Origin: a virus
Length of the DNA stretch: 47,813 nucleotides
IMG/VR virus record: IMGVR_UViG_3300031696_000011
Reading direction: 5' to 3' (one strand)
Shown here: positions 23,390 to 47,031 of the stretch, in pieces
Layout: the number at the start of each line of letters is the position of its first letter
Position numbering within the stretch: position 1 is the stretch's first letter
Notes under the pieces: model-generated
Databases searched by the model: none
Told to the model about the DNA's origin: nothing
Seen by the model: only the letters and a program-made list of their open reading frames with translations
Translations under genes and position numbers: made by a program

Positions 23390-23405
23390 AGCAATTCGCA
23401 TGCCA
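23390..23405 (-). promoter_or_regulatory. Sigma-54 type -24/-12 promoter candidate (TGGCATGCGAATTGCT)
   Basis: The minus strand reads TGGCATG-CGAA-TTGCT with canonical GG/GC spacing. It fills the 30-nt gap between the stop at 23409 and the GTG at 23378. Confidence 0.6.
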
Positions 23406-28201: not shown

Positions 28202-28217
28202 AGCACATACCATGCCA
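28202..28217 (-). promoter_or_regulatory. Sigma-54 type -24/-12 promoter candidate (TGGCATGGTATGTGCT) upstream of the capsid gene
   Basis: The minus strand reads TTGGCATGGTATGTGCTT, matching the plus-strand element at 44186-44203 at 16 of 18 positions. It is intergenic, directly after a terminator. Confidence 0.65.
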
Positions 28218-31745: not shown

Positions 31746-33356
31746 TTAGTTTCGTGTTGCGCCCATGTAACCGTAGACTGGTGCAGATTTTCGCGACTCT
31801 CCGCGCGCGTCTACGCCAGAGAAAGAATATTTGCTTTTATCGTATTCCGCAATAATATCTTTAGTGGTTCTGCGACGAAGCAGACGTGAATTTTTAACTA
31901 GGTGTTCGTTTGAATAGAGCGGGTATTCCTTATCAGCAAGAGCAAGAACTGTGCCATCAGCACGGTCAGGAGATCCGTGACCTTTCGCACGTGCAACACG
32001 TTTTGACTCAAGCACAATTTTTCCGTGAACCGCGCCTTGCATATAGTATCGTGTCGCAAGTTGCCGCTTGAGTGCGTCGTCGTCGAACAACACAAGGTCT
32101 AGGTTCTTGAGGAATATTGCAAAGTTAAACCACATCTCTGCGCCGCGATTACCGTATGTCGAATTGTCAATCGCCCGCGCTTGGTTCAATACTCGGTTAA
32201 CTTGAAACCCGTCCTTCCACAACTGATCTATCATAGACTTGCCCACGCCGCCGTCGTCAGCGTTGATATTTTCTGGCGGAATCTTATACCTATTTATCAA
32301 ACCCTTCACATGATCCACCGCATCGGTCGTGTCGTCATACCTAAAGCAAGGCATCGCAATCTGTTTGTTGCCATCAAATATACTGAACACATTTTCGTCA
32401 CCTCCCGCCGCAAGATCAAGCCCACCGTATCGTATGCCTGTCGGTATCACAACCGGAGGTTTTCGATACGCGCGCATGACCTCTTCAAATGTCATCACTA
32501 GCATCTCGTCTATGCTACAAAATTCGGCTAGGTATGCAGACCTAAACCACGCGGAATTTTCACCGAATCGTTCTCGCGCTTCGTCTACTTCGTCCTGTGA
32601 TATGTGCGGACAGTCACGATACGTGACTTTGAACCGATGCCAACGCTCTGACTCGAAACAACCATAGAAATGCCCGGATGGGGAACCTGGTGAAGACACA
32701 TCCAACCGCCGAGTGAGATTATTACACCGGGCGAGAGCTTCGAAAATGGGCTCCGTGACAGTTTTTGCTTCGTCAACAAAGATTGCAAATTCGCCATCGG
32801 GTCGGAGAGTGTGATAACCTTCAGCCAAGCCCGCGTCGTCGGTAGCAAAGAGTTGGATCTTAGATTTGGTTGGGATAAATGTGAGACTGCGGTAGTTGAT
32901 CTTCCAGAGGATTTCGCCATGGAGCTCATTGATAAATCTGCACAGCCGTGAAACTGCGTAGAAGGTTTGTCTGTCAAGTTGCGTGCCTGACGCGGAAGTA
33001 ATCACACAATTCGCTTCCACGTGCGCCATCGCAAGCCACACTGCACACGGTGCAATTAAAAACTGCGATTTTCCCGAACCATTGTTCGCGCACGTCGCAA
33101 TACGCAACACTTTATCCGGCAGCTTGCCATGTGCAAACAACGTCATGACTTGAATCTGCCATGTGTGCACTTTTACGTCGTGATCGCGGATGTATGGGTC
33201 GTAGATGTGCAACAACATCAACGGATCTTTGATCTTGAACCCATTTGCGCCAGCCCAACCCTTCGCATCGGTAATCGACGCTTTAGGCAAGCGCGATTCC
33301 TGGTCGACAGTGGCGTTTTTGATCTGTGCTTCTACTGTTTGTCGAAAAGGCGCCAT
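31746..33356 (-). CDS. terL: Terminase large subunit
   Basis: Walker A-like CANNGSGKSQF. Walker B FAIFVDEA. C-terminal RNase H-like nuclease Asp motifs GGLDLAAGGDENV, ADDGGVG and SPDRADG. Confidence 0.85.
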   Translation of the reverse strand: MAPFRQTVEAQIKNATVDQESRLPKASITDAKGWAGANGFKIKDPLMLLHIYDPYIRDHDVKVHTWQIQVMTLFAHGKLPDKVLRIATCANNGSGKSQFLIAPCAVWLAMAHVEANCVITSASGTQLDRQTFYAVSRLCRFINELHGEILWKINYRSLTFIPTKSKIQLFATDDAGLAEGYHTLRPDGEFAIFVDEAKTVTEPIFEALARCNNLTRRLDVSSPGSPSGHFYGCFESERWHRFKVTYRDCPHISQDEVDEARERFGENSAWFRSAYLAEFCSIDEMLVMTFEEVMRAYRKPPVVIPTGIRYGGLDLAAGGDENVFSIFDGNKQIAMPCFRYDDTTDAVDHVKGLINRYKIPPENINADDGGVGKSMIDQLWKDGFQVNRVLNQARAIDNSTYGNRGAEMWFNFAIFLKNLDLVLFDDDALKRQLATRYYMQGAVHGKIVLESKRVARAKGHGSPDRADGTVLALADKEYPLYSNEHLVKNSRLLRRRTTKDIIAEYDKSKYSFSGVDARGESRKSAPVYGYMGATRN

Positions 33357-34096
33357 ACTAGTCTCTTATATTTACTCATATCGTGGTCTTGAACTGGGTT
33401 AAAGTTAAATTGGCGTATTGCACTCCACACTCCTTGGAATAAATCACGCAATAGAAACATGCGCGAAGGATTTACGTGGAACTCGCCACGTGTATCGAAG
33501 TGAATAAGCGGGACTGCAATACGCCGAAAATTAATCACAGGAATCCACGTCACAATATCGTTGTTGTCCCGAAACGTGACCGCATGCTTGTCGCCAGCGA
33601 ACCTACGTGCGTATTTTCCGTTCCCTACTCGAGGACTAGCGAACGCGCACAGGTAAATTGCCGGGTTTGTGGTTGGGAATCCGTATGTTTTCGTGTTCGA
33701 ATACATAATCGTCGCTATCGCCGCGCCTAGACTATGCCCTGTGAACACAATTCTGTCATACGTAGGTTGGCGACGCAAGATTTCAACCAACAACCCTAAC
33801 CACACCCCTTGCACACGTCGCATAAACCCACGATGCACGCGACTTCCATCTTTGTCGAACTTCACTTTCCTCACCATCACGTTCGCAACCCAGTCTCGCG
33901 CCGCAAGCGTGCCGCGCACTGCCACATACAACGTCCTGTCTTTGTTGTCTAGGTGCAGTATCGCATGTGTGCCGTGAGTTCCGTCGAACTTCATATACAG
34001 GCTTGAATCGCCATATGCCTCAACACACAAATCTGCCGCGCAAGTGACCCATCGTGACTGTAGATGCGCGTGTTTGTATATCGGGTTAGACATCAA
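33332..34096 (-). CDS. Class 3 lipase-family alpha/beta hydrolase (Lipase_3)
   Basis: VAVRGTLAARDWVANV, HRGFMRRV, the nucleophile elbow FTGHSLGAAIA, FASPRVGN and DIVTWIP occur in the order typical of PF01764. Confidence 0.85.
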   Translation of the reverse strand: MMSNPIYKHAHLQSRWVTCAADLCVEAYGDSSLYMKFDGTHGTHAILHLDNKDRTLYVAVRGTLAARDWVANVMVRKVKFDKDGSRVHRGFMRRVQGVWLGLLVEILRRQPTYDRIVFTGHSLGAAIATIMYSNTKTYGFPTTNPAIYLCAFASPRVGNGKYARRFAGDKHAVTFRDNNDIVTWIPVINFRRIAVPLIHFDTRGEFHVNPSRMFLLRDLFQGVWSAIRQFNFNPVQDHDMSKYKRLVWRLFDKQ

Positions 34097-34505: not shown

Positions 34506-34723
34506 ATTGTTACGCCAGTAAACTGTTCCACCAACATTCTTTCGCTCTCCCTCGCTTCACCTTTGATGTCTGCGTCGTGCGCCGCAGGCCTACGGCTCGC
34601 ACATTCGCCCTCTTCTCCTTTCCACCTCCACTGCAACATCTTATTCATCGGCGCCGTCGTCGCACTTCTAATCGTTGCACTCCCAAACCCTACTTCTTTT
34701 CCTCTATGCTTGTGTGTATTCAT
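34502..34723 (-). CDS. Hypothetical protein, 73 aa, first ORF of the late operon
   Basis: ATGA overlap with the downstream gene supports translation. Its ATG lies 14 nt downstream of the C of the -12 GC of the promoter-like element. Confidence 0.4.
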   Translation of the reverse strand: MNTHKHRGKEVGFGSATIRSATTAPMNKMLQWRWKGEEGECASRRPAAHDADIKGEARESERMLVEQFTGVTI

Positions 34724-34735
34724 TCTCTATCTTAT

Positions 34736-34751
34736 AGCAATTCCCATGCCA
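34736..34751 (-). promoter_or_regulatory. Sigma-54 type -24/-12 promoter candidate (TGGCATGGGAATTGCT) at the head of the late operon
   Basis: The minus strand reads TGGCATG-GGAA-TTGCT with correct GG-N10-GC spacing. It sits at the upstream edge of the ~26-kb minus-strand gene array. Confidence 0.65.
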
Positions 34752-35151
34752 TGCTTCCGTGCGTCGTTTCGTGTACCACGTTTTCACAATCAAATATGTC
34801 AAGTCGATTCGTAATTTTGGTCATTTTGTAAGATATACACTGTTCGGATGCCGAACTCAGATCGGGCTTTTTATTTCCGCGGCGTAGGATTAGATCGCCT
34901 AATGGTTAGCATAAGGAAAACTAATCATAAGTGAATTACTTATATATGTTAAGCGCGCGGGAAGTTAATACATACGCCAAGCGGGGACGCCGTGAATCCT
35001 TAACAACTTTGGTTAGGAATTGAATCGCCAGTGTGAAAACCCTAGAAAATCGCCGGAGGATCAGAGAGCACGACGAGAGGGCAAACATGAAACGCATATG
35101 TCTTTTCAGAATATCCGGTTTGGTCTGGGGAATGGGCGGTTACTCTTTTCC

Positions 35152-35182
35152 GTGGAATGTGAAGAGAACCTTTCCATTCCAC
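35152..35182 (+). repeat. Hairpin element R1 containing the 18-nt repeat gtgaagagaacctttcca
   Basis: 8-bp arms gtggaatg (35152-35159) / cattccac (35175-35182). The 18-mer at 35159-35176 recurs exactly at 35306-35323. Confidence 0.8.
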
Positions 35183-35305
35183 CCCCCCGCTCTCGAATGG
35201 GCAAATGGGCAATTCCACATTAAAGAGGATTTAATAAAAAAAACATATATACCAAATACTCTCTTTTGTGGTCTACCAAAGTTGCTAACAGTCGACGGAG
35301 AAGTA

Positions 35306-35334
35306 GTGAAGAGAACCTTTCCACATTCCACATT
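35306..35334 (+). repeat. Second copy (R2) of the 18-nt repeat, followed by tandem ccacatt-ccacatt
   Basis: Exact 18-nt match to 35159-35176, with flanking ttccac similarity. Confidence 0.8.
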
Positions 35335-35409
35335 CTCTCCCTTGTCCCTTGTCCGGTTCATGGTTCATACGGTTCCACGCTTTGCTTTGATTCACGCCAG
35401 AGGATGAAG

Positions 35410-35503
35410 GAATGAAGGAGCGGGAGAGTGAAGGAGCGCACGACGCAAGGGAATGGACAAGGGAAGGAGCGCGGAGAATGGGAGTGAATGAAGGAGCGCG
35501 GAG
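35410..35503 (+). repeat. Direct repeats: GAAGGAGCG x4 (35414, 35430, 35463, 35490); 14-mer gaaggagcgcggag x2; 13-mer gaatgaaggagcg x2
   Basis: Counted directly in the sequence. A fifth degenerate copy, aaaggagca, is at 35521. Confidence 0.85.
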
Positions 35504-35612
35504 GTAATAGGTAAAGGGGAAAAGGAGCATGGGAAAAGAATCAGAAGAAAAAGCGAATAGGGGTTGACGGGAAAAGGGAAAGAGTCCATTCTCTCCGTGT
35601 CGCCAATTGGTG

Positions 35613-35637
35613 ACCCGGATTTATCCGGTTGTTTTTT
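35613..35637 (+). terminator. Weak intrinsic terminator candidate
   Basis: 5-bp GC-rich stem ccgga / tccgg (35615-35619 and 35624-35628) with loop ttta, then ttgtttttt. Confidence 0.35.
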
Positions 35638-35861
35638 GACAGGTTCGCAGTTGAGACGGTTTCCATGAAACCAGATTGACTAGAACAAATTGAATAGGTG
35701 AAAGGAAAACCTTTCACGCCGGTGGAGTATCGGCACAAGTCCTAAGCTTGCGAATGAGTTCATTGCCTTCGAAAATTCAGGGTTACAAGCCAAAGTAGAG
35801 TTGTGTCTAACGTTCAAGATCGGCGGTGAAATGGAATGGCCGGAAACTTAGAGAAATTGGG

Positions 35862-35890
35862 TTTACATAGGAGAATCTCTGGATTCTAAT
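35862..35890 (+). promoter_or_regulatory. Sigma-70 type early promoter candidate (TTTACA-N17-TCTAAT)
   Basis: -35 TTTACA at 35862-35867, a 17-nt spacer, and -10 TCTAAT at 35885-35890, directly upstream of the first plus-strand gene. Confidence 0.5.
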
Positions 35891-35938
35891 ATGTGGATTC
35901 GCCCGGTAATAATGCCACGAATTCACATTTTAAAACCT

Positions 35939-36697
35939 ATGTCAAACACACAAACATTGGAAATTCCAACCAAACGCAATGTCAAGTCTGCCGATATTGC
36001 AACGGGAAAAGGTATCACTGGCGCCGACGCTAAGAACCAAAGCTCTGTGAAATATTGGGACGAGGGTGGAGCATTCAACACGATCGCAGTTGCAAGACTC
36101 GTCCGTGAAATTGCTACCAAGTCTGCAAAGCGTGGATACAATATCAATGTGACCAGTCTCGCTGCTGCCGCTGCAAAACGGATCAAAGCGACTGTTGGCA
36201 AAGATATGTTGACTCGGGAAGAGTTCTACGCTGTGACGGATGCTGCTAACGTGTTACTTTTCAATCTCATCAGTGATATTGAAAACGACACCGACGGTGG
36301 ATTCGTCAACGAGGACGGTTCACGCTGCGGATACGAGCGCGAGTCGTTCTCTGCCGAGAAGATCAACGTCAACCATAAATTGGAGAAGGTGCATCTCACC
36401 AAGACTGCAACGTGGCGCAAGTTGCTCGACCGTGTGACGGAGATTGACAAGCTGGAAGAGGCTATTGCGAACAAAGTCGCGAGCCTCCGCAAGCTGCGTG
36501 AACGTCAGAACGATTCGTTCGATGCCGACAAGATCGACGAAATGGGATTGCAAATCCTGTCCGGCGAGGAATGGTTGGAGCGAAGTGATTCGCTACTCGC
36601 CAAAGACGGTTGGAAGCCTGTGCAAGACGACGCACACTATGTGAACCCATCTTCCCGGAACTACTGGGAAGAATTCGGCAACACCATTGCCGAGTGA
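35939..36697 (+). CDS. Early hypothetical protein, ~252 aa
   Basis: The ORF is open from 35891, but that ATG lies inside the promoter candidate. In-frame ATGs at 35912 and 35939 are more plausible starts. A strong terminator follows. Confidence 0.55.
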   Translation: MSNTQTLEIPTKRNVKSADIATGKGITGADAKNQSSVKYWDEGGAFNTIAVARLVREIATKSAKRGYNINVTSLAAAAAKRIKATVGKDMLTREEFYAVTDAANVLLFNLISDIENDTDGGFVNEDGSRCGYERESFSAEKINVNHKLEKVHLTKTATWRKLLDRVTEIDKLEEAIANKVASLRKLRERQNDSFDADKIDEMGLQILSGEEWLERSDSLLAKDGWKPVQDDAHYVNPSSRNYWEEFGNTIAE

Positions 36698-36703
36698 AGC
36701 AAA

Positions 36704-36740
36704 GCGGGAGAGGACTTCAAACTCTCCCGCACTTTTCGTT
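36704..36740 (+). terminator. Intrinsic terminator
   Basis: 9-bp stem gcgggagag (36704-36712) / ctctcccgc (36722-36730), followed by acttttcgtt. Confidence 0.7.
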
Positions 36741-37003
36741 CCTTCAAATCTGCGTTGCATTGCATTGCAGCATAGATTTGAGCGAATCATATTCGTTCTA
36801 CTGCGGACCATTGCACACACTGTGCATAGCCAGCCGCAACGCTAGCTAGTAGGTCACAAGAGTTCTTGTGCAATCACTGTATTGCATACCCTCTTCGTCT
36901 ACAATAGCGAGATACGCCCGGCAGAACTAGACTGAAAACTACGGGATAGACGACAGAACACAAGAACTGTGTATTGTGCTCGTGATACTACGAAAGGAAT
37001 ATC

Positions 37004-37270
37004 ATGAAAAAACTTATATTGCAGGCTGAACAGTTGCGTCAAGAATGCAACATGGCTATCTCCAATATCAGAGCACGTCTATCCCATGTCCCTTGGGAAC
37101 AAGGGTTGCGGATGGACTCAGAACTCACTGAATGTCATTTGCACAGATGCGCGAATATGTTGCGGAACATTAGCGACGACTGTGCAAACAACAGAGTCAG
37201 TGAGGTGTCAGCGCAAGGCGACATCGCAGGTGTTGAAAAGCACATGACGGTGATTGCGAAATACTTGTAA
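37004..37270 (+). CDS. Early hypothetical protein, 88 aa
   Basis: Preceded by aaaggaatatc-ATG, one of the few clear SD-like sites in the window. Confidence 0.6.
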   Translation: MKKLILQAEQLRQECNMAISNIRARLSHVPWEQGLRMDSELTECHLHRCANMLRNISDDCANNRVSEVSAQGDIAGVEKHMTVIAKYL

Positions 37271-37592
37271 CCCTATCTCACGGGCACACTACACGGTTCT
37301 TGGATGTGAAAGATCTGTCAGCGGCAATCTATGGGACCGCACAGTCAAGAACGAGCGGATAAATACAGTGTTGGGAATCGCGATTGCGCCGCAGGCTTGT
37401 GATACTACGCAAGCCACGGAGATGCAAAACCTACCCGACACAACTTCTGGGACGACTACTCTAGTATTGGCTGAAGGGAGACGAAGCATTAGAAACGGCA
37501 GAGAGTGGAGAGAAATCCATGTGACAAACTCTGTTTATGACCGTTCCGCGTATAGGTTAGCGGCTATTGGCAAGGTAAATGCTCCCGTGTAG
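37254..37592 (+). CDS. Doubtful ORF, 112 aa (an internal start at 37422 is possible)
   Basis: It is the only ORF filling 37.27-37.6 kb. Overlaps the upstream stop. No motifs. Its 3' end contains a promoter-like element. Confidence 0.3.
   Translation: MRNTCNPISRAHYTVLGCERSVSGNLWDRTVKNERINTVLGIAIAPQACDTTQATEMQNLPDTTSGTTTLVLAEGRRSIRNGREWREIHVTNSVYDRSAYRLAAIGKVNAPV
37568..37583 (+). promoter_or_regulatory. Weaker sigma-54 type -24/-12 match (TGGCAAGGTAAATGCT)
   Basis: Correct GG/GC spacing. Shares TGGCA-GGTA--TGCT with the elements at 28202 and 44187. A terminator follows about 50 nt downstream. Confidence 0.35.
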
Positions 37593-37631
37593 GACAATGG
37601 TTCTACAAGATAAACCCGAATTACACGATTG

Positions 37632-37675
37632 GGAGCGCACAGTTTACAGACACTCTGTGCGCTCCTTCTCTTTTT
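37632..37675 (+). terminator. Intrinsic terminator
   Basis: Perfect 11-bp stem ggagcgcacag (37632-37642) / ctgtgcgctcc (37655-37665), followed by ttctcttttt. Confidence 0.8.
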
Positions 37676-37719
37676 CATATCTCAATTCAGACTAGGGATA
37701 GCATAGCTTGAATTCAGAT

Positions 37720-37878
37720 ATGAAAGAATACAAACATCACCGTTTATGTGGGCATGGTGGAATCAAATGCCCTTGCTGTTCGCCGATGAACACAGTCAAG
37801 AAATCACGTGTTATGATTAACCGCCGATACCGGCGCACGTGCAAACAAGAACTGCATACCTATGACGAAAGCGAATAA
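37720..37878 (+). CDS. Small basic Cys-rich protein, 52 aa (below the ORF-track cutoff)
   Basis: Translated by hand: MKEYKHHRLCGHGGIKCPCCSPMNTVKKSRVMINRRYRRTCKQELHTYDESE. Has a CxH...CPCC zinc-knuckle-like pattern and a basic tail. Confidence 0.45.
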   Translation: MKEYKHHRLCGHGGIKCPCCSPMNTVKKSRVMINRRYRRTCKQELHTYDESE

Positions 37879-38053
37879 GATCAGAGATGGCCCTGTCATG
37901 GGCTAATATTCTCAATCACCGAAGTTGGCCCGGTAATAATAGGCCAACACATACTTCAATTCAGGAGGAAGTGTAGACCATCGGCGAAATGTTTGATTAT
38001 GACCCAAACTACTGACGGTAACGCTAGGTGGAGCCTTCCTTCTGAATTGAATT

Positions 38054-38149
38054 ATGAACAAAACTGATAGAATCCTTATCGTCCTGTGCATCATGCTTGC
38101 GCTACTTGTGGTCATGGCAAATGTTGCAGGCTACATCACTCACCGATGA
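38054..38149 (+). CDS. Possible 31-aa single-pass membrane peptide
   Basis: Translated by hand: MNKTDRILIVLCIMLALLVVMANVAGYITHR. Its TGA overlaps the ATG at 38146 (ATGA). Confidence 0.3.
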   Translation: MNKTDRILIVLCIMLALLVVMANVAGYITHR

Positions 38150-38502
38150 TTGCTTGCCCTGAATGCGCCGCAGGCTTGGTCTTGCCGAGTTACGTGGACG
38201 GAATTGTCAAGTGTCCAGAGTGTGACATGCTGTTTCAATACACGAAACCTGTGCCGTCACAACCACCCACACCCACATACGATGGGATAGGTAGACGTGT
38301 GAATCGTAGGATGCGGCAAGTAGACATGGACATCGCATGTGAAAAACTTTACGACAAGCATGTTGCAAGGCTAGGATACGTCCCTGAGCGTATGGAACTT
38401 TACTTGTTGTTGAAGTCGATGGAGAATGCAGTGCGCGGACGTATGATTGCGCGAATGTGGGACGAGGAATTGCGGAGGACATTTCACGAGGTATTACAAT
38501 GA
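38146..38502 (+). CDS. Zinc-ribbon protein, ~118 aa (the ORF is open from 38086)
   Basis: CPEC...CPEC pairs (MIACPECAAGLVLPSYVDGIVKCPECDMLFQY). The start is either 38146 (ATGA-coupled) or 38086. Confidence 0.55.
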   Translation: MIACPECAAGLVLPSYVDGIVKCPECDMLFQYTKPVPSQPPTPTYDGIGRRVNRRMRQVDMDIACEKLYDKHVARLGYVPERMELYLLLKSMENAVRGRMIARMWDEELRRTFHEVLQ

Positions 38503-38705
38503 ACGCGAAAGAGTTTGAAGAAGCAACAGGTGATGAGCCACGTCAGGATGATTTGGAGCGTGCAAACTGCATTCTTGCAGGTGCCAGTGGGCATCAAGAT
38601 TGTGGCATATGTGAACCGCACGGTTTGCCTATTAGCAAATGCGCGCTCTGCTTTATCCTTCCTGCTAAGGATGTCAAAAGAAAACCAAACAAACAAACGG
38701 AATAA
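38499..38705 (+). CDS. Small Cys-rich protein, 68 aa
   Basis: The ATG at 38499 overlaps the upstream TGA (ATGA). Contains HQDCGICEPH...CALC. Confidence 0.5.
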   Translation: MNAKEFEEATGDEPRQDDLERANCILAGASGHQDCGICEPHGLPISKCALCFILPAKDVKRKPNKQTE

Positions 38706-38707
38706 AC

Positions 38708-38989
38708 ATGAACGAAATACTAAATGACTTGAAAGATCTCTATCATGCAGCGATAGACAATCGTAACCTCTTTGCTGCGCGTGCTGCTGCTGCGCCATGT
38801 GAAGACATGGTGTTGCACAACAACCTTATGTCTGTGTCGGAATCGTATGCTGCAATCGCGCTGCGTATCGGGGACATCATTAGCAAGTATGACGAGGTTG
38901 ATCCTGAAGTTGCACCTGTCACATCCACGCGGGAACATTGCCATGACAAGTTCAACAACATTGGCGAAGCAATTGATGATGCATCATAA
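38708..38989 (+). CDS. Hypothetical protein, 93 aa
   Basis: Tightly packed ORF. The antisense ORFs look like shadows. Confidence 0.5.
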   Translation: MNEILNDLKDLYHAAIDNRNLFAARAAAAPCEDMVLHNNLMSVSESYAAIALRIGDIISKYDEVDPEVAPVTSTREHCHDKFNNIGEAIDDAS

Positions 38990-38994
38990 ACGTG

Positions 38995-39010
38995 TGGCAT
39001 GGTTCTTGCT
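38995..39010 (+). promoter_or_regulatory. Sigma-54 type -24/-12 promoter candidate (TGGCATGGTTCTTGCT)
   Basis: TGGCATG-GTTC-TTGCT sits in the 78-nt gap between the genes ending at 38989 and starting at 39068. It matches the consensus TGGCACG-N4-TTGCW at all but one position. Confidence 0.65.
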
Positions 39011-39067
39011 ACACATTCATTGCCTAGTCCAACCCTTTCCACCCTTTAGTGTATCACACATATCGTT

Positions 39068-39433
39068 ATGACAATCAAGCACACACAAACACGTGCGCCA
39101 GTTAGGGTTGCTAACCACTTTCGCGTTGCTAAGTATCGCGAGACACTGTGGATAGTGTATACACTGACTGATCTCATTGCCAAGATCAAAGCGTCGATGC
39201 TAGCATCAGGTAAACACAGGCATATTGTGGTCGTGACACACTTCGATCATGTCAGTGTGGACAGTGATGGTGTGACGTTTCACAGGTATGAAAGTATCAG
39301 CACAGGACATTCGTATATGAATAACGAAATCATTATACCATCGTGCGAACTTACGGCAGGTGCATTAGAGAGGCTTGAACATATGCAAGAACACTCTGCA
39401 CTATGCAGTCAAGTTGATCGACAACAATCATGA
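39068..39433 (+). CDS. Hypothetical protein, 121 aa
   Basis: First ORF downstream of the promoter-like element. ATGA overlap with the next gene. Confidence 0.55.
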   Translation: MTIKHTQTRAPVRVANHFRVAKYRETLWIVYTLTDLIAKIKASMLASGKHRHIVVVTHFDHVSVDSDGVTFHRYESISTGHSYMNNEIIIPSCELTAGALERLEHMQEHSALCSQVDRQQS

Positions 39434-39678
39434 ACACAAGAAATAAACCTTGCCCCTGTGGAAGCGGGAGCAAACACAAGAAGTGTTGCTTAGCTAAGCA
39501 GCAAGAACAACGGAAGCTTGATAGCGAACCCGAAGGGTTGCGGCGTAATCGTAAACACAAGAAGTCACTTGTCCCTGCGGCAATTACACTAGCTGCAACA
39601 GATCAACTGCTAGACTGTGGCCCGAAGTCTACGCTTCCGAACTTCAACATCAACGCATTCAACACTGACAATGAGTGA
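39430..39678 (+). CDS. SEC-C motif protein, 82 aa
   Basis: N-terminal KPCPCGSGSKHKKCC is the SecA C-terminal metal-binding (SEC-C) motif. Confidence 0.7.
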   Translation: MNTRNKPCPCGSGSKHKKCCLAKQQEQRKLDSEPEGLRRNRKHKKSLVPAAITLAATDQLLDCGPKSTLPNFNINAFNTDNE

Positions 39679-40327
39679 CCATATTCCATCGCACAACCCA
39701 ACACCGTTGCCTACCGTGCTCAAGGTGCCGGGATACAGTGTTGCTGTGTCTCGTTTGATCGACTGGATCATTGCACCGGGCGAAATTGTGGGTGCAGGTG
39801 GGTTGCTTGAACCGCGCGAGATTAACATCGTGCTTGCAGACTTCATGCTACGGCATTCCAAGTTCCACGAATACGGAATGATCCACGCTGTTGAACAAAT
39901 GGGCGAGCACACACGCTACTGGCTGTGGCGTAAACGTGACTGGAGCGAGCGAGCACATGTGCATCGTATCGACAAGGCAAAGAACGACATTGAACGAACA
40001 CGGAGTATGCGTAGCACCAAGACACGCGACACAATCTTTAGTCGGTTGTGTAAAATGTTCCCGAAGTTTCTGACTGAGCGTAAGCTGGGTATGGAAATGG
40101 TTCGGATGTGGATCAGTGAACACGACGACAACGACGAGTTCAAGTATTGGCTGAACAAGATGGGATACTTTGAACTGTCGGAAACTGATAGAGCTGCGGT
40201 TGAAGAGGCAGCGGATGAAGCAGACGAGATTGAAGCAGCAGATCCGTTCGATCCGAATTGGATCAGCGAGATAGACGCAGGACTACTTGCACGAATGAAG
40301 AAGGAATACAGCAAACCATTATCATGA
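39671..40327 (+). CDS. Hypothetical protein, 218 aa (acidic C-terminus)
   Basis: The ATG at 39671 gives an 8-nt overlap with the upstream gene. The ORF track's longer form would overlap by 62 nt. Confidence 0.55.
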   Translation: MSDHIPSHNPTPLPTVLKVPGYSVAVSRLIDWIIAPGEIVGAGGLLEPREINIVLADFMLRHSKFHEYGMIHAVEQMGEHTRYWLWRKRDWSERAHVHRIDKAKNDIERTRSMRSTKTRDTIFSRLCKMFPKFLTERKLGMEMVRMWISEHDDNDEFKYWLNKMGYFELSETDRAAVEEAADEADEIEAADPFDPNWISEIDAGLLARMKKEYSKPLS

Positions 40328-42468
40328 CACCTGAACAGATCAAAGCATCGCTATTCAAGCTGATGCCTAAAGCAGCACCGGGCAATGCGCTTGCACGTGC
40401 TGAAGAACAAGCGAAAGTTGACGCGGAGAAACGACAACGTGCACGTGCTGTGCTAGAAGCAGAGGTTGCTAAGTTCGTTGGCGAATCAGCTGCGTCTAAC
40501 ATGGGTGAGAAACGACTTCGCGAGATGCGAGACATTGGACGCAAGGCTGCGGAAGATGCGACGTTCCATGCTGCACTTGCCGATGCGAAAGATAACCCTG
40601 TTGATACTGTTGACGAACAGATCGCCGCGCTGACTAGCATTCACGAGAACAAAACACCTGCTCGTGGACGTATGACACCTGCTACTCACGACAAGATGTC
40701 TGCTGTTATCAAGTTCGAGCCTGAAGTATTGGACATGTATGCCATGCGATACGGCAGCGACGAGAAGAAATCGTTCCGCATTGATTTGGAAAACCGAATG
40801 CTTCCATGCTTGAAACAGTTCAATCGTGGCCCGAAGTTACTGCACTTTCAAACACATCCGTTACCAAGGGCATTGCGTTTGCTTGGAGACGAGCATCAAT
40901 CAGCATTGTTGATCGCGCCGACAGGTGCGGGCAAGACATACTTCTTTGCGACGTTGATTAAATATCTGCGACTATACTTTCCCGAAGACTATCCGAAAGA
41001 TAGACAGATCATGGTTGTCACGAAGCCAACGGTGGTTAAGCAGACACAGCGTGTGTTGTTCGGTGAGTTTGGGATTACGAATGTGATGGTGACGTCGTAT
41101 CCAGAGATGACACGGTCGCAGATTAGTGGGATATATGTATCATGGGAGACACGGGTTACGAGAGATGGTGAGGTGAAAGAGGTTCCGATATGGAATCCAG
41201 TGTTCAGGCCGTCACTAATCATATGGGATGAGTGTCAGTGTCTCAAGAATTTCGGCAGCACACAGAGCATAATTGCAGCAGCGTATGGGCAACGATTGAA
41301 TCCGACAGGACATGTGGCAAGTGCAGCGGATTGGGAAGGTGACCCGATTAGTTTGAGTGTGTCTGCCACGCCATACTCACGTCCGCAGAATGCGAAGGTT
41401 GTGATCTCGTTGCTAGGCCCAGTGATTAACAATCGCAAGGTAACACTTAACAACTTCAACGAGTGGGCACGGGATATATGTGCAAGACACAACACAGACT
41501 TAGATAAGTGGAGTCCGGTTGCGATGAAGAGTATTCAGGATTCGATTGAACACCTTACGATTAGGTTCGACAGGATTCAGTATCGGAAGCGGACACTTAT
41601 CAAACAGAAGGTGATTGAGTTCGAGACGGTGGAAGAGAAGAGCGAATACGGTGAAGCGTTTACTGAATACATGAAGAAGCGCGAGGAGTTGGAGGCGAAA
41701 GAACTGTCGTCAGGAACTGAGATACTAGTGGCGATGATGATGTTTCGCAAGAAGGCAGAGATCATTCGTGCACCGCGGCTTGCACAGATGGGACTGGATA
41801 GTATGGACTTGAGCAACAACGTAATCATTGCGTGTGCATTTCGTGAGACACTTGAAACAATCAACGAACTGTTGCTAGACGTTGGTGTAGGTAGTGACAA
41901 GATTGCACAGATCAAAGGAGGACAAACAGCAGATGCCAGACAAAAACAAATCGACGGATTCCAACGGGACGAGCGTCATATTATGTTGCTTATGTTTAGT
42001 GCAGGTGGAGCGGGACTTTCGTTACATCAATCAAACACTGGAGATTTCCCGAACAAACGTCCACGAGTTGTGTATCTGCCACCAGTGTGGAACGCAGAGG
42101 AACTCGTTCAAGTCCTTGGTCGAGCACATCGCGTTACTTCTGATAGCACAACTCGACAATACATAGTCTGGTATAAGGACACGATCGAGAGCGAGGTTGC
42201 TGAGAAAGTTAAGAAGAAGTGTAGCGCACTTAAAGAAGTTGTCGGGAAGAAAGAAGACTGGAGTATTGCATTCGCAGGCAAGGAGATTGGTGAAGGGATA
42301 GAAGATCAGATGGAGATAAATTTCAAAGGTGTGCGAGACAAGAGCGACGAAGAAGTGAATGACGACGACGACGAGAATGAAGTGGCATCAGACTTCGAGG
42401 TCATGGATTCTGAGGAAGAACTCAAGCGAGCCGAGGTTGCGGATGCTATACTTGAACATACATTATGA
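40324..42468 (+). CDS. SNF2/SF2-family helicase, ~714 aa
   Basis: Motif I LLIAPTGAGKTYF. Motif II IIWDECQCLKN. Motif V MFSAGGAGLSLH. Motif VI QVLGRAHRVTS. ATGA-coupled start at 40324. Confidence 0.85.
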   Translation: MTPEQIKASLFKLMPKAAPGNALARAEEQAKVDAEKRQRARAVLEAEVAKFVGESAASNMGEKRLREMRDIGRKAAEDATFHAALADAKDNPVDTVDEQIAALTSIHENKTPARGRMTPATHDKMSAVIKFEPEVLDMYAMRYGSDEKKSFRIDLENRMLPCLKQFNRGPKLLHFQTHPLPRALRLLGDEHQSALLIAPTGAGKTYFFATLIKYLRLYFPEDYPKDRQIMVVTKPTVVKQTQRVLFGEFGITNVMVTSYPEMTRSQISGIYVSWETRVTRDGEVKEVPIWNPVFRPSLIIWDECQCLKNFGSTQSIIAAAYGQRLNPTGHVASAADWEGDPISLSVSATPYSRPQNAKVVISLLGPVINNRKVTLNNFNEWARDICARHNTDLDKWSPVAMKSIQDSIEHLTIRFDRIQYRKRTLIKQKVIEFETVEEKSEYGEAFTEYMKKREELEAKELSSGTEILVAMMMFRKKAEIIRAPRLAQMGLDSMDLSNNVIIACAFRETLETINELLLDVGVGSDKIAQIKGGQTADARQKQIDGFQRDERHIMLLMFSAGGAGLSLHQSNTGDFPNKRPRVVYLPPVWNAEELVQVLGRAHRVTSDSTTRQYIVWYKDTIESEVAEKVKKKCSALKEVVGKKEDWSIAFAGKEIGEGIEDQMEINFKGVRDKSDEEVNDDDDENEVASDFEVMDSEEELKRAEVADAILEHTL

Positions 42469-42779
42469 ACAAAGATCTAGCACTAGAAGATGCGATTGAA
42501 TTGATCGACGCGATCATGAAGGGTGAGATAAACCCGGAGGATGAGTGTGAGAAATGGCTGAGGGCATATGCACCTAAGCGATTACGAGATGCTACGAGCC
42601 ACGACAAGGACAAGATAGCTGAACACAATGTGAGAATCATACACATTATGCAGAAGATAAATTGGCTTGAAGGACAGTGGGACAGGAACGACAACAACAA
42701 CAAATGTAACAAGTTTGTTCAAGACAAGCTGACGAAACTACACACAGAACTAACCAAACTACAAACAAAAGATGAGTGA
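42465..42779 (+). CDS. Hypothetical protein, 104 aa
   Basis: ATGA overlap with the helicase gene. Confidence 0.5.
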   Translation: MNKDLALEDAIELIDAIMKGEINPEDECEKWLRAYAPKRLRDATSHDKDKIAEHNVRIIHIMQKINWLEGQWDRNDNNNKCNKFVQDKLTKLHTELTKLQTKDE

Positions 42780-43200
42780 TACAGACCTGACCAAAGAAGA
42801 GATTGCGGACGGCGACGACTACATTGCCGAGACAATCGCGCAACAAGCGCGAGACAAAGCTGCGGCAAAGAAACCACCAGCACGACAGCTTGAATTGTAT
42901 GTGATCTTCGCGTGGAAGACACCGCAGTATAGGCTGCACGAATGGTGTCAGACTGGTGAGACGGCACCTAACGACTCTCAGTGTGTGCATTGTGATCGCA
43001 CGATGGGTGACGCTGATGATCGTGTATGTGATTCAGGCATGGCTGGTGCGCTTGGTGGATGGAACGACTACAAAGGTGGTAGTGGAAACTTCGGCATTGC
43101 GATGTTGAAGTGGCAGACATTGAAAGCGCAAGGACATAACAACTGTCAGGTGTTGAACATACACAGCGGCAAGCTAGAGTTGGAGGTGTATGATGCTTAG
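42772..43200 (+). CDS. Hypothetical protein, 142 aa
   Basis: 8-nt overlap with the upstream gene. Contains CVHCD...C Cys residues. Confidence 0.5.
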   Translation: MSDTDLTKEEIADGDDYIAETIAQQARDKAAAKKPPARQLELYVIFAWKTPQYRLHEWCQTGETAPNDSQCVHCDRTMGDADDRVCDSGMAGALGGWNDYKGGSGNFGIAMLKWQTLKAQGHNNCQVLNIHSGKLELEVYDA

Positions 43201-44176
43201 CACAGAGGAGTTGGCGCGGATAAATGAGGCGACCAAACGGCAAGCGGCAACTGTTGAAGCGAACAAGGCGCGGTTGCTAAATCAACCACCGAACCCTAGC
43301 GGAGTGGATCACGGTGCGATCAAACGTAAGCTAGAAAAGATGGGACTGTTTGAGTTGGCGAATGATCTCAAGGTCTGTCGTCCAGCAAGTCTTGCTTCGC
43401 TTGATGAGTTTATCACAGATGACGCGGCGATGTTGCGGCTCAAGAAACAGGTTGAGTATCTGTGCGAGATGGATGACCCAGTGTTGATTCACGGTGAGAG
43501 TGGGACAGGCAAGGAGTTGATAGCTCGTGCGTTGCATGGACGAAAGTCAGCGCCGTTTATCGCAGTCAACACGACAGCACTACCACTTCATCTGATGGAG
43601 AGTGAGTTATTTGGTCATGCGAAAGGATCATTCACCGGTGCAGATGCGAACAAGATCGGGATACTTGAAGGCGCAGGTAACGGGACTGTGTTTCTGGATG
43701 AGATAGGTGACATGGAGTTGACGCTGCAATCGAAGTTGTTGCGTGTGTTGCAAGAGAAAGTAATCAGACCTGTCGGCACGAATGCTGAGCGTGAGATACA
43801 TTGTCGAGTAGTGGCAGCCACGCATCAGGTGATACGACGTGAGGAAACAGTTCATGGAACTAAGTCAGTCACGTGGAAGAAAGGTTTCCGTCAGGATTTA
43901 TACTGGCGTCTTGCTACACACACGCTTCACATCTCACCGCTTCGTGATCGTCCAGATGATATCCGTGAGATACTAGATGCGGTCATAGATCCTGACCAAC
44001 GATTGCCTGAATCATTCCGTGACGAGATGGTAACGATGCAACTGGAAGGCAACTTCCGTGAACTCAATGCGTTGTGTCAGCGTAAGTTTCTTGCAATGAA
44101 AGTGGACGATACGCAGGGTGAACTTTATATACCCGGTGTTGTGACACACGCAGCCTACGTCCACACAAAAGAGTAA
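43190..44176 (+). CDS. Sigma-54 interaction-domain AAA+ ATPase (minimal bacterial enhancer-binding protein; no sensory domain or HTH seen)
   Basis: VLIHGESGTGKELIARALH (Walker A), FGHAKGSFTGA (GAFTGA loop, nt 43625-43642), GTVFLDEIGDM (Walker B), LQSKLLRVLQE, FRQDLYWRL, ISPLRDRPDDI and GNFRELNA. About 95 aa precede the module and about 30 aa follow it. Confidence 0.9.
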   Translation: MMLSTEELARINEATKRQAATVEANKARLLNQPPNPSGVDHGAIKRKLEKMGLFELANDLKVCRPASLASLDEFITDDAAMLRLKKQVEYLCEMDDPVLIHGESGTGKELIARALHGRKSAPFIAVNTTALPLHLMESELFGHAKGSFTGADANKIGILEGAGNGTVFLDEIGDMELTLQSKLLRVLQEKVIRPVGTNAEREIHCRVVAATHQVIRREETVHGTKSVTWKKGFRQDLYWRLATHTLHISPLRDRPDDIREILDAVIDPDQRLPESFRDEMVTMQLEGNFRELNALCQRKFLAMKVDDTQGELYIPGVVTHAAYVHTKE

Positions 44177-44186
44177 CGCAACCTGT

Positions 44187-44202
44187 TGGCACGGTATGTG
44201 CT
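44187..44202 (+). promoter_or_regulatory. Sigma-54 type -24/-12 promoter candidate (TGGCACGGTATGTGCT)
   Basis: TTGGCACG-GTAT-GTGCTG begins 11 nt after the activator gene's stop and lies 28 nt upstream of the ATG at 44230. Confidence 0.65.
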
Positions 44203-44229
44203 GTATAAGAACTGTCCACCTCCCCGAGT

Positions 44230-44463
44230 ATGAACAAGAAAATATTTAGAAATTCTGTCGGCTGGATTGTTCTGGTATGGAATCGTGCTGACTGGGAGTT
44301 CATCGCAGTCCATGAGAACGGTTGCTGTAAGGACATACCGTGGACAGCAGTGGAAGAGAAAGATAAAAGTCTTGCGATTGATACGATCATCGGCAAGCTG
44401 ACAAGACGTGAGTTCAAATACCAACAAGAACTCCAACAAGATTTGCCCAACGCTACTTCGTAG
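44230..44463 (+). CDS. Hypothetical protein, 77 aa
   Basis: First ORF after the promoter-like element. Confidence 0.5.
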   Translation: MNKKIFRNSVGWIVLVWNRADWEFIAVHENGCCKDIPWTAVEEKDKSLAIDTIIGKLTRREFKYQQELQQDLPNATS

Positions 44464-44523
44464 CACGGCATTAACAAACGAGCATAATGCTCATCGACAA
44501 GAACAGTTAGAAAAAGCAAAGTT

Positions 44524-45171
44524 ATGAGTAACGAAGCCGCAGACCAAAACGTTGAGACCGAAGTTGCCGATGCCCCGGCACAAGCCATCGACCTGAGCAA
44601 CGACAGCGCTGCTGAAGCGAACAAAGCCGTGGTCATCATCGACCCTGAGACTGGTAAGGACAACACTTACCTGACTGACGACGACGGCGACAACTACTTG
44701 GAGTTCGAAGGACTCCGTGTGTATGTCACCACATTCGGCGGCGCATTGAAGGGTGTGCTGTATCACTACAAACAGTTCACCTCGCTTGACAAGGCGATTG
44801 AAGTGCACGGCGCAGACAAAGTCCTCGCTGCGTTGAACGACAACCTGAATGCCGGAACCCGTAACAAGGTGAAGTCGTCCAAGATTCCGAAGTTCGACGA
44901 CAGCAAGGCGCAGGAGTCCGCGATTCGCACGATGCTTACGGAACATCCTGTTCAGTTCACCATCAACGAAGCGATTCGTTACGAGCCGGGTGAGCGCGAT
45001 CAGACGTCTGGTCAGATCCTCGCCGTGCTGAAGGCAGCGCAGAAGGATGGTGTCGGAACGACCAAGATCGCCGCGATCATGCAGCGTTTGATGGCCGTGA
45101 TGGCGAAGGAGAACTTGCGTCGTGGTATCGACGACGGACAGGTTCACGTTGCCGACGACGACGAGCAGTAA
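44524..45171 (+). CDS. Acidic hypothetical protein, 215 aa
   Basis: Clean ORF with acidic termini (ends DDGQVHVADDDEQ). A strong terminator follows. The long antisense ORFs are compositional shadows. Confidence 0.65.
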   Translation: MSNEAADQNVETEVADAPAQAIDLSNDSAAEANKAVVIIDPETGKDNTYLTDDDGDNYLEFEGLRVYVTTFGGALKGVLYHYKQFTSLDKAIEVHGADKVLAALNDNLNAGTRNKVKSSKIPKFDDSKAQESAIRTMLTEHPVQFTINEAIRYEPGERDQTSGQILAVLKAAQKDGVGTTKIAAIMQRLMAVMAKENLRRGIDDGQVHVADDDEQ

Positions 45172-45183
45172 GAAGTCACATGT

Positions 45184-45214
45184 TGGGGAGGACATCCACT
45201 CCCCAGCATTTTTT
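45184..45214 (+). terminator. Intrinsic terminator
   Basis: 7-bp stem tggggag (45184-45190) / ctcccca (45199-45205), followed by gcatttttt. Confidence 0.75.
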
Positions 45215-45318
45215 AAATCGAACACACTAGCAAGCACAACGCAATGGCGATTTCGTTTATTGGTTTAGCTGGATCGCAGGTCGTGACTAAACACCATGAT
45301 GTTAGTGTGTTCGATTTA
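45214..45318. repeat. 16-bp perfect inverted repeat (taaatcgaacacacta / tagtgtgttcgattta) enclosing 73 nt
   Basis: Arms at 45214-45229 and 45303-45318, extendable to 18 of 19 bp. Located between a terminator and the gene at 45342. Confidence 0.85.
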
Positions 45319-45341
45319 GAAAATGCAAACAGGAAATAGAT

Positions 45342-45995
45342 ATGAGTATTGACCCAATCAAGTTAGCGATAGGTGACAATGAAGGCCACGAAGGTCAGTG
45401 GAAGCAACGCAGGTTGAAGCGTAGCACATACACGGTGAAGAATGCAATGAAATTTCAAGCATACTTTGACCTGTCTATACGTGACAAGAAGCCTGTGTTG
45501 ATACCAGCAAGACCATACAATGTGAAGCTAGACACGTTGTATAAAAAGGTATGCGATGGTTTGTTGTGGCTAGTGCAGAACATGCAACAAGGTGCAGCGC
45601 AGCAAGCGTATGCGTTGCTCAAGTCGCAGTCGCAGTTTACTAGAGTCGAGGGACATGCAGGCGGCGTGAAGATTACATGGGATGTGCACGAAGAGATACT
45701 TTCACCAGAATCAATCAAAGCTGTGACAGGTGTTGCGCCTGTTGGGATATTACAATCAGCTACGACGCAAGAGCAGATGTCGGATGCAGTAGCGGACATC
45801 AAACAAGTCGGGTTGACTGACAGAATCAGGACGCATCTGGAGAGCACAAGCGACACTGGTATATTCAACGAGCAAGGACTGAACCTGTCACCGGAAAAGG
45901 TGCGGGACATAGCGCGACTTCTCACAGACGCAGGTGTGCCACCGGCATTGGCTGTGATCGAACCGACGCAAGTAAGATTCTTCAAACCATCGTAA
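45342..45995 (+). CDS. Hypothetical protein, 217 aa
   Basis: Preceded by an aggaaatagat-ATG SD-like site. Confidence 0.6.
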   Translation: MSIDPIKLAIGDNEGHEGQWKQRRLKRSTYTVKNAMKFQAYFDLSIRDKKPVLIPARPYNVKLDTLYKKVCDGLLWLVQNMQQGAAQQAYALLKSQSQFTRVEGHAGGVKITWDVHEEILSPESIKAVTGVAPVGILQSATTQEQMSDAVADIKQVGLTDRIRTHLESTSDTGIFNEQGLNLSPEKVRDIARLLTDAGVPPALAVIEPTQVRFFKPS

Positions 45996-45996
45996 C

Positions 45997-46197
45997 ATGG
46001 ACATGATTAACAAACTGGTTGACACACCTGCAGGTGTAGGGTTGTGCAGGATTATAATTAATGGGCAAGCTATTGTCTATTATCTTGACAAGCCATTCTT
46101 TGCGTATGATGTTGGCGATATCAAACTGTGCGACATGCAAGATGAAATGTTGTATGCACAGATTGAAGCTAAAGCAATCGAGGAACTATCGAAATGA
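45997..46197 (+). CDS. Hypothetical protein, 66 aa
   Basis: Tightly packed. ATGA overlap with the ligase gene. Confidence 0.5.
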   Translation: MDMINKLVDTPAGVGLCRIIINGQAIVYYLDKPFFAYDVGDIKLCDMQDEMLYAQIEAKAIEELSK

Positions 46198-47027
46198 AAC
46201 CACCGTTTAAGTCAATGCTCTTTTGTAACGAAGAGTGGGAGTGGAGTGATGTGATGTTGCCTGCGATGGTGCAGCCTAAGCTAGATGGTGTGGCTGCGTA
46301 TAAGGCAGGCGGTGAGATATGGACGAAGCGAGGTAAGTTGTTTCCGAACAATCGCATACGCACATACTTGCGCGAAGTTCTTGAAGAAGGAATGGACTGT
46401 GAGATATGGCATCCGCACATGACATTTCATCAGATCTCTGGGTTCTGTCGGAGGATAAAAGATACACCACCAATTGGTTGGCTTGCGATGGTGTATGATC
46501 GTAGTCGTCCGTATATGTCGGAGGCGTATGTGATAAGGTATCGCAAGCTGCTTGAGTGGTATGACGACTCGCCGCATGTGAACGAGCAACAGACAGTTCG
46601 AATCATGGACAGTGTATTGTGTCACACGCAAGAAGACATAGAAGCAACTCACTTTGAGAACACACTACAAGGACAAGAAGGTAGTATGATACGTGCGTTG
46701 CATGCGCCATACTATCACGGGCGGACTGGGATTAAAGATGGGTTCGGATTCAAGTTCGTAGGACTGGAGTATGACACGGCGATGTTCACTGGAACTACCG
46801 CGAATTCCAACAGCGTCAAAGCTGCGACGATGATAGGTGCGATAGTGTGCGAACATAAAAAGTGGGGCAGGCTACATATAGGAAGCGGGTTCGACCATAC
46901 GCTGTCCAAAGATATGTATGACAACCCTGCTCGTTACACAGGCCAAGTGGTAAGATTTAAGTATAAGAAACATGGAACAGAAGAGAAGCCACGTCAACCT
47001 ATCTTCGTGAGCTTCGAAGGGAAATAA
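46194..47027 (+). CDS. lig: ATP-dependent DNA ligase, 277 aa
   Basis: Motif I adenylation lysine VQPKLDGVAAY (KxDG). Motif III-like DCEIW. Motif IV EGSMIR. C-terminal VVRFKYKKHG...PRQPIFVSF, typical of small phage ligases. Confidence 0.8.
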   Translation: MKPPFKSMLFCNEEWEWSDVMLPAMVQPKLDGVAAYKAGGEIWTKRGKLFPNNRIRTYLREVLEEGMDCEIWHPHMTFHQISGFCRRIKDTPPIGWLAMVYDRSRPYMSEAYVIRYRKLLEWYDDSPHVNEQQTVRIMDSVLCHTQEDIEATHFENTLQGQEGSMIRALHAPYYHGRTGIKDGFGFKFVGLEYDTAMFTGTTANSNSVKAATMIGAIVCEHKKWGRLHIGSGFDHTLSKDMYDNPARYTGQVVRFKYKKHGTEEKPRQPIFVSFEGK

Positions 47028-47031
47028 GATT

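Follow-up and report, generated by a model that had tools for sequence, protein, structure and literature searches.

Does a bacteriophage that encodes its own sigma-54 activator place the gene for that activator under a sigma-54 promoter, so that activation would raise the synthesis of the activator itself? The question is posed by a viral DNA of 47,813 nucleotides (nt), IMG/VR record IMGVR_UViG_3300031696_000011, which we analyzed over its full length and call the window. An earlier interpretation made from the letters of this DNA (the sequence-only reading) had pointed to TGGCATG-GTTC-TTGCT, in the 78-nt gap before the gene at 39068, as a sigma-54 element upstream of the operon that contains the activator gene at 43190. 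We found that sequence, spacing, and statistics all agree with this assignment. The element at 38995-39010 is very probably a real sigma-54 promoter, and we consider it rather likely, from the features of the DNA described below, that it is a working promoter whose transcripts include the activator gene.

The element, TGGCATGGTTCTTGCT (38995-39010, + strand), is intergenic and has the GG (38996-38997) and GC (39008-39009) doublets of a -24/-12 promoter at the spacing of the canonical TGGCAC-N5-TTGCW. Its sole deviation from the core is a T for C at position 6, and T is the commonest alternative at this position among the sigma-54 sites of related phages. The site lies 6 nt past the stop codon of the open reading frame (ORF) at 38708-38989 and 57 nt ahead of the ATG at 39068, with the gap between these two codons measuring 78 nt. 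Two mechanically called ORFs, 38772-39071 (+) and 38743-39042 (-), cross it. From standard sigma-54 geometry, transcription is predicted to start at 39019-39023 (+), about 12 nt past the GC of the -12 element. A sigma-70 reading of the same DNA was rejected, as the best -10 sequence at the proper spacing in the window is TCATTG.

To ask how often such a site arises by chance, we counted motifs and scored sites throughout the window. TGGCA-N6-TTGC was observed six times, compared to 0.58 expected, and none of 100 shuffles gave six. The bare GG-N10-GC pattern was not enriched (310 versus 288), and the signal therefore resides in the extended motif. A weight matrix of 24 columns, derived from 72 unique sites in related phage contigs and none from the window, was run against the window and against 300 first-order shuffles of it. 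The scan returned six sites of at least 16 bits (0.23 expected) and four of at least 20 bits (0.007 expected). The 38995 site was the best in the window at 22.4 bits; the top score in the 300 shuffles was 20.4 bits.

The genes downstream of the element are all on the + strand. They encode a 121-amino-acid protein of no known family (39068-39433); an 82-amino-acid protein with an N-terminal SEC-C zinc motif (39430-39678), whose ATG overlaps the preceding stop codon as ATGA; a 218-amino-acid protein (39671-40327); a superfamily-2 helicase of 714 amino acids (40324-42468), again with an ATGA overlap, which is syntenic in most related loci; two small proteins of 104 (42465-42779) and 142 (42772-43200) amino acids, whose genes each overlap both neighbors; and the activator (43190-44176). 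The intervening genes had been described as mostly overlapping or abutting. In fact, with the starts of the third and fourth genes corrected to ATG 39671 and ATG 40324, all six junctions between 39068 and 44176 are overlaps (39430/39433, 39671/39678, 40324/40327, 42465/42468, 42772/42779, and 43190/43200). The sequence-only reading had also seen no terminator between the element and the activator gene, and both a terminator scan and our own stricter scan concur, with no convincing + strand terminator detected in 39010-44176. The sole + strand match before the activator stop codon is weak and lies inside the activator gene (44068-44084).

Past the element, a strong intrinsic terminator first appears at 45180-45209 (+), with an 11-bp stem and a T6 tail. 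It is kept, with one loop change, at 11991-12020 of L073, a related scaffold from Tara Oceans, and is likely the 3′ end of the transcription unit. We infer that this unit extends from 38995 to 45209, includes the activator gene, and carries in its last kilobase (kb) a second promoter at 44187, with two genes of 77 and 215 amino acids (44230-45171, +) between that promoter and the terminator. Because the 38995 promoter heads an unbroken, overlapping run of genes with the activator gene at its end, the wiring for feedback is present in the DNA. At that level, the positive-feedback wiring is real.

Other observations concern the content and surroundings of this unit. PHROGs and Pfam searches with its small genes gave nothing except the SEC-C motif, and neither the first gene (39068) nor the helicase had a close relative in searches of IMG/VR. 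The terminator at 45180 is only about 1 kb past the 44187 promoter. In the 170-nt gap that follows it, no promoter is recognizable for the genes that come next (45342 onward, among them those for ligase, exonuclease, and polymerase).

The gene at the end of the overlapping run encodes a 328-amino-acid bacterial enhancer-binding protein (bEBP) that consists of the AAA+ domain (PF00158, E = 1.6e-53) and little else. All parts of the bEBP core that we looked for (Walker A and B, GAFTGA loop, arginine fingers, and sensor II) are present: Walker A is GESGTGK, the L1 loop is GSFTGA (ELFGHAKGSFTGA), Walker B is FLDEIGD, and sensor II is GNFREL, and the protein also contains RVVAAT, FRQDLYWRL, and PLRDR. 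It aligns with the AAA+ cores of FleQ, NtrC1, ZraR, NifA, LuxO, and PspF (E = 1e-32 to 1e-45). Residues 74-299 match PspF residues 8-236, and the protein ends at residue 328. A C-terminal helix-turn-helix (HTH) is absent; Pfam gave no HTH_8 match, and the 29 residues past the equivalent of PspF residue 236 leave no room for one. All of the 22 phage-type homologs likewise end 5-30 residues past sensor II. Aligning 23 phage-type sequences showed no variation at the catalytic residues and a variable N-terminal stretch of 20-75 residues. In the window protein, the N-terminal extension of 74 residues is poorly conserved except for an LDxFIT motif, and residues 1-74 had no Pfam match, be it to a receiver, GAF, PAS, or V4R domain.

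We also looked for a shared enhancer. No 9-mer, with one mismatch allowed, was common to at least five of the six regions upstream of the strong sigma-54 sites, which fits enhancer-independent action, as expected if the activator has no DNA-binding domain. As there is neither a DNA-binding domain nor a shared upstream enhancer motif, the activator would act from solution and not from an enhancer. No large ORF of the window matched a sigma-54 family in Pfam, and the sigma factor must therefore be that of the host.

A genome scan with the activator yielded 80 bacterial bEBP loci, none of which has another gene in common with the window. The activator was also compared, in translation, with 50,697 phage records; the matches listed were mostly host-type bEBP genes (glnG, zraR, atoC, and prpR) or short unannotated contigs, all with less than 60% identity; among the matches listed, there was no annotated isolate-phage genome with the gene order of the window, the contexts of the matches not having been inspected. 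A full-text literature search, whose coverage leaves out many papers in subscription journals, found no description of a phage-encoded bEBP.

For the 38995 site, the most informative comparison is with L073. The activator of L073 is 93% identical in amino acid sequence to that of the window, and the two genomes are 82%-89% identical at the nucleotide level in blocks. L073 6451-6518 aligns with window 38995-39061 at 79.7% identity as an isolated island of 69 nt, and neither 37696-38995 nor 39061-39707 of the window has an alignable counterpart in L073. The L073 element, TGGCACAGTTCTTGCT at 6451-6466, has two differences (T/C and G/A) from that of the window, both at degenerate positions. Past the core, 16 or 18 nt differ, with an indel of 2 nt; the island is therefore not conserved as coding sequence. 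The predicted transcription start falls in this differing stretch. L073 alone shows an accidental sigma-70-like sequence, TTGGCA-16-TATGTT, at the promoter element.

More distant relatives retain the position of the site. We retrieved three contigs (L076, L077, and L078) through their activator homologs, which are 50%-56% identical in amino acid sequence to the window activator. In each, a homolog of the third gene (39671) is immediately preceded by a + strand site scoring 19-24 bits and followed by the helicase and then the activator, even though these third-gene homologs are only about 22%-24% identical to that of the window (E = 4e-8 to 3e-16). In L073, as in these three contigs, the third-gene homolog directly follows the sigma-54 site, and in all four our own scan found no strong terminator between the site and the activator. 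L076 and L078 have a second + strand site further upstream. Beyond these contigs, activator homologs with 35%-52% amino acid identity are present on 72 IMG/VR contigs, about 50 of which have one or more further genes in common with the window; the usual order is helicase, activator, exonuclease, DNA polymerase, and primase. Ten of the IMG/VR loci (L001, L002, L006, L010, L012, L019, L033, L034, L050, and L070) have a site on the + strand between 2 and 7 kb ahead of the activator. In those ten, the site precedes a different conserved gene family, of about 186 amino acids, that has no homolog in the window.

The six strong sites of the window all share the orientation of their downstream genes, and five lie wholly within the 8.6% of the genome that is non-coding by the gene list of this analysis (binomial estimate, about 3e-5). 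The second + strand promoter, TGGCACGGTATGTGCT (44187-44202, 20.5 bits), is 11 nt past the activator stop codon. In the phage group, no sigma-54 site or other regulatory element is more conserved. Of the 72 IMG/VR loci, 47 carry a counterpart downstream of the activator match, mostly within 36-90 nt and usually as TTGGCAYGnnTCTTGCTTTATATA, and L073-L078 have one too. Because this motif recurs in so many loci, it argues clearly that the phage group uses sigma-54 promoters. The activator-then-promoter arrangement is common to at least 47 IMG/VR contigs and also to several from Tara and Logan.

The other four strong sites are on the - strand. One is at the head of the leftward structural operon (34736-34751, 21.0 bits) and is identical in L073 at 2017. 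Another (31941-31956, 18.6 bits) lies within the 3′ end of a 536-amino-acid gene and ahead of a 637-amino-acid gene, and is the one site among the six in coding DNA. The remaining two are intergenic, in the gap before a 433-amino-acid gene at 26723-28024 (28202-28217, 22.3 bits) and in the 30-nt gap before the gene at 22977-23378 (23390-23405, 16.9 bits). This last gene (-) has the N terminus VKKINKKLIIAAVAVAAAMLTGCGG, a lipoprotein signal with a lipobox, and a GTG start just 12 nt past the -12 element; either its mRNA is nearly leaderless or the start codon is miscalled.

By their spacers, the six sites form three pairs with near-identical sequences: GTTCTTGCT at 38995 and 31941, GGTATGTGCT at 44187 and 28202, and G(G/C)GAATTGCT at 34736 and 23390. 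The spacer of the L073 site that follows the activator differs. The pairs might represent promoter classes or copying between sites. Among weaker matches, TGGCAAGGTAAATGCT at 37568-37583 (+, 13.2 bits), at the 3′ end of the gene at 37254-37592, is retained in L073 at 4812 (15.0 bits) and may be an extra sigma-54 promoter in the "early" region. A low-scoring match at 13496, inside the ORF of 1758 amino acids at 8692-13968, is probably due to chance.

Between the predicted transcription start and the first gene is a C/T-rich leader of 30 nt, GTCCAACCCTTTCCACCCTTTAGTGTATCA (39027-39056, +), which is unstructured and has no Shine-Dalgarno sequence after it. Despite non-homologous flanks, this leader, GTCCAACCC(T/A)TTCCACCCTTTAGTGTATCA, is identical in L073 at 29 of 30 nt and is thus better conserved between the two genomes than the promoter core (14 of 16). 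Its predicted fold was no better than those of shuffled sequences. We considered an attenuator or riboswitch and rejected both, as there is no structure beyond chance. In L073, the leader leads directly into the homolog of the third gene of the window (MSD..., 83% amino acid identity). In the window, a two-gene cassette of 603 nt (39068-39670), which consists of the 121- and 82-amino-acid genes, lies between the leader and the ATG of the 218-amino-acid gene; L073, where the corresponding position is 6517, lacks this cassette. Genes seem to be exchanged at the promoter-leader junction.

The leader core, CCTTTCCAC, is present in exactly three copies in the window (34617, 35316, and 39034), all on the + strand and in non-coding control regions, compared to an estimated 0.4 expected, and the leader that follows the 44187 promoter carries the similar GTCCACCTCCCC. 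A metagenome scan with the leader element recovered just two already-known haplotypes and one chance match. CT-rich tracts past sigma-54 promoters have been linked to translational insulation in a preprint (bioRxiv 10.1101/086108).

A promoter that depends on the product of its own operon has to be primed. The sequence-only reading had assigned this role to a candidate sigma-70-type early promoter at 35862-35890 and had described the result as a bistable early-to-middle switch. The part of that proposal that places the activator-containing operon under the sigma-54 site stands, with unbroken wiring on one strand and the same arrangement in the four closest relatives; the part that supplies the first activator is not supported. 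The proposed promoter, TTTACA-17-TCTAAT, is poor, with a C at the key second position of the -10 element. It also abuts the ATG at 35891, such that its transcript would begin inside the ORF, and our promoter scan did not report it. Among other candidates, a Bacteroidota-type promoter motif, TAnnTTTG, was not enriched and was rejected. A scan of 35891-38995 found no + strand terminator, and read-through from upstream is therefore possible. Bistability is likewise not supported. We regard a bistable switch as speculation and a one-way amplifier as more likely where early transcription of a lytic phage continues into the loop. Given its gene arrangement, the phage probably reinforces its own transition from early to later expression.

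We propose the following sequence of events. Host RNA polymerase containing sigma-54 would bind the 38995 element as a closed complex, which the activator of the phage (43190-44176) would open. The first activator would be made by early transcription that begins further upstream and reads through. This activator would then fire the 38995 promoter, which heads a putative unit of about 6.1 kb, from 39068 to the terminator at 45180-45209, that comprises the two-gene cassette, the 218-amino-acid gene, the helicase, the two small genes, and the activator, with the 44187 promoter and its two genes in the last kilobase. By raising its own mRNA, the activator would form an amplifier that helps it reach the high concentration needed by a ring-forming activator that works without an enhancer. 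The low efficiency of AAA+-only activators would provide a rationale for such a self-amplifying loop. Once abundant, the activator would drive the other five sigma-54 promoters, namely 44187 and the four in the structural operon.

Several observations weigh against this proposal. In bacteria, the sigma-54 holoenzyme binds many sites that yield little transcription, as one study reports (PMC4591121). A scan of 34750-39000 turned up no convincing sigma-70 consensus that could prime the loop; the host may use promoters unlike the E. coli consensus. The first gene of the operon (39068) has no Shine-Dalgarno sequence, yet most genes of this genome likewise lack one and have A-rich DNA before the ATG, a pattern to which the activator gene, with its clear GGAGGTG ribosome-binding site, is the contrast. 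In two of the ten loci that have an upstream site before the 186-amino-acid family (L001 and L050), a strong hairpin and T-run follow the first gene past the site, which may serve mainly that one gene; the clean feedback topology therefore belongs to the branch of the window and not to every relative. The genes concerned are at 3453-4082 in L001 and 3949-4419 in L050, and the immediate position of the terminator suggests a highly expressed single-gene unit. Eight further loci (L005, L007, L025, L027, L041, L044, L053, and L068) have no + strand sigma-54 site before the helicase-activator block, and four of them still showed nothing when scanned down to 9 bits. The block in these four loci, which extends from the gene ahead of the helicase as far as the activator, begins at the divergent control region. 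With eight relatives lacking the upstream site, the loop is dispensable in the phage group.

These relatives fit an explanation in which the promoter is sigma-54 dependent but serves the replication genes (the 218-amino-acid gene and the helicase), the level of activator is set by early read-through, and feedback is incidental or made negligible by polarity, RNA processing, or weak translation of distal genes. The hairpins of L001 and L050 are consistent with this explanation, as are the 4.2 kb that separate the activator gene from the promoter and the far wider conservation of the 44187 promoter after the activator, which suggests an ancestral regulon boundary there. We nevertheless consider it unlikely: neither a terminator nor a gap separates promoter from activator gene in the window or its four closest relatives, the activator has a good ribosome-binding site of its own, and the stop/start overlaps favor coupled expression across the whole block. 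A different possibility is that the element binds the sigma-54 holoenzyme, or is otherwise conserved, but is non-productive, serving as a roadblock or insulator between early and middle genes or as a recombination junction for cassette exchange. The island lies exactly at a mosaic boundary, with different upstream genes in the window and L073 and a cassette inserted after the leader; the leader is better conserved than the core; and silent sigma-54 binding sites are common in bacteria (PMC4591121). However, distant relatives keep the motif in place while all else, including the leader, has diverged, both core differences fall on degenerate consensus positions, and a recombination junction needs no exact -24/-12 geometry. 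As this genome moreover encodes a sigma-54 activator and the element is one of its six sites, which are co-oriented and mostly intergenic, a non-productive role is quite improbable. Least credible of all is a chance match without function. Short degenerate motifs do arise by chance, and the bare GG-N10-GC is not enriched, but none of 300 shuffled genomes gave so good a site, the island is conserved in L073, and its position is conserved in L076-L078; this explanation is effectively refuted. We therefore favor a sigma-54 promoter whose transcripts would reach, and feed back through, the activator gene.

The window is a complete phage genome of about 47.8 kb, as L073 aligns across the join from 47811 to 1. 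Rightward genes occupy 35891-47681 and then 49-8477 and include those for the helicase, sigma-54 activator, ligase, exonuclease, a Sak4-like protein, DNA polymerase A, and primase. Leftward genes, from 34505 to 8692, are mostly of no known family, the exceptions being a class-3 lipase domain and a weak SU10-adaptor match. In the leftward structural operon, the second gene encodes the lipase domain protein (PF01764, E = 1e-22; 33332-34096, -), which L073 also retains. The 536-amino-acid gene sits where L078 has a gene matching Terminase_6N, and the ORF of 1758 amino acids (8692-13968, -), which closes the leftward operon, has no Pfam match. No tRNA genes or Rfam matches were found in the window. 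Between the divergent operons is a non-coding region of 1.4 kb (34506-35890) that does not align with L073. Within it, GAATGAAGGAGCGC occurs four times (35410-35499) and GTGAAGAGAACCTTTCCA is present twice without mismatch (35159 and 35306), alongside several long-range inverted repeats; the region may be an origin or a regulatory array. A near-identity DNA search with 38000-45000 against the 50,697 phage records gave no match, no cultured phage has a DNA polymerase more than 25% identical to that of the window over most of its length, and Tara Oceans and other marine metagenomes supplied the closest relatives. We conclude that the phage is uncultured and marine and has no cultured relative.

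Transcription by sigma-54 is usually seen as cellular, enhancer requiring, and responsive to signals; here, a virus appears to carry a stripped-down activator. Given at least 47 IMG/VR contigs and the Tara and Logan contigs, the arrangement is not a one-off. A broader proposal is that a widespread uncultured, mostly marine phage lineage with genomes of about 47-55 kb runs all of its post-early genes on host sigma-54 through a self-encoded, enhancer-free minimal activator, with a self-sustaining loop in the branch of the window; judging from the genomes at hand, we hold the case for and against this generalization to be evenly balanced. If true, a bEBP circuit encoded by a virus would be described here for the first time, as a natural counterpart of engineered promiscuous AAA+-only activators, and infection would be predicted to switch on the whole sigma-54 regulon of the host. 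If confirmed, it would add a strategy of gene timing to those of phages that use their own polymerases, sigma factors, anti-sigma factors, antiterminators, or DNA-binding activators. It would also offer synthetic biology a small, naturally enhancer-independent activator-promoter pair and allow host range and resistance to be predicted through rpoN.

The proposed wiring is that of the glnAp2-glnL(ntrB)-glnG(ntrC) operon of enteric bacteria, where transcription from a sigma-54 promoter extends into the gene that encodes its activator; other promoters provide a basal supply of this protein, and activation then increases its synthesis. The phage circuit would differ in being viral, with the timing of infection and not a metabolic signal as its input. 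The activators differ as well. NtrC is controlled through phosphorylation of its receiver domain and binds enhancers with a C-terminal HTH, whereas the phage protein has neither a receiver nor an HTH, and no enhancer-like motif was found. Natural bEBPs that lack a DNA-binding domain include FlgR of H. pylori and CtcC of Chlamydia. These are cellular proteins that keep the receiver domain, in place of which the phage protein has its N-terminal extension of 74 residues. PspF of E. coli has a C-terminal HTH, binds enhancers, is restrained by PspA, and represses its own gene. Like the phage protein, which aligns over PspF residues 8-236, PspF (PDB 2bjw and related entries) has no N-terminal sensory domain, and it is intrinsically active; unlike PspF, the phage wiring implies positive autoregulation.

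Another parallel is DctD250, which has the same minimal AAA+ content as the phage activator but is engineered; it activates unrelated sigma-54 promoters without an enhancer, about 10-fold below the level of the bound cognate activator (PMC3844500). Among phages, Pseudomonas phage YuA has sigma-54-dependent promoters (Ceyssens et al., 2008, cited in PMC10914365) and sets a precedent as a tailed phage whose transcription relies in part on host sigma-54. As no Pseudomonas phage record among the 50,697 matched the window activator in the translated search, YuA-type phages appear to have no bEBP of their own. The two kinds of phage are unrelated, with no DNA match, and unlike in YuA, the sigma-54 sites of the window phage precede both replication and structural genes.

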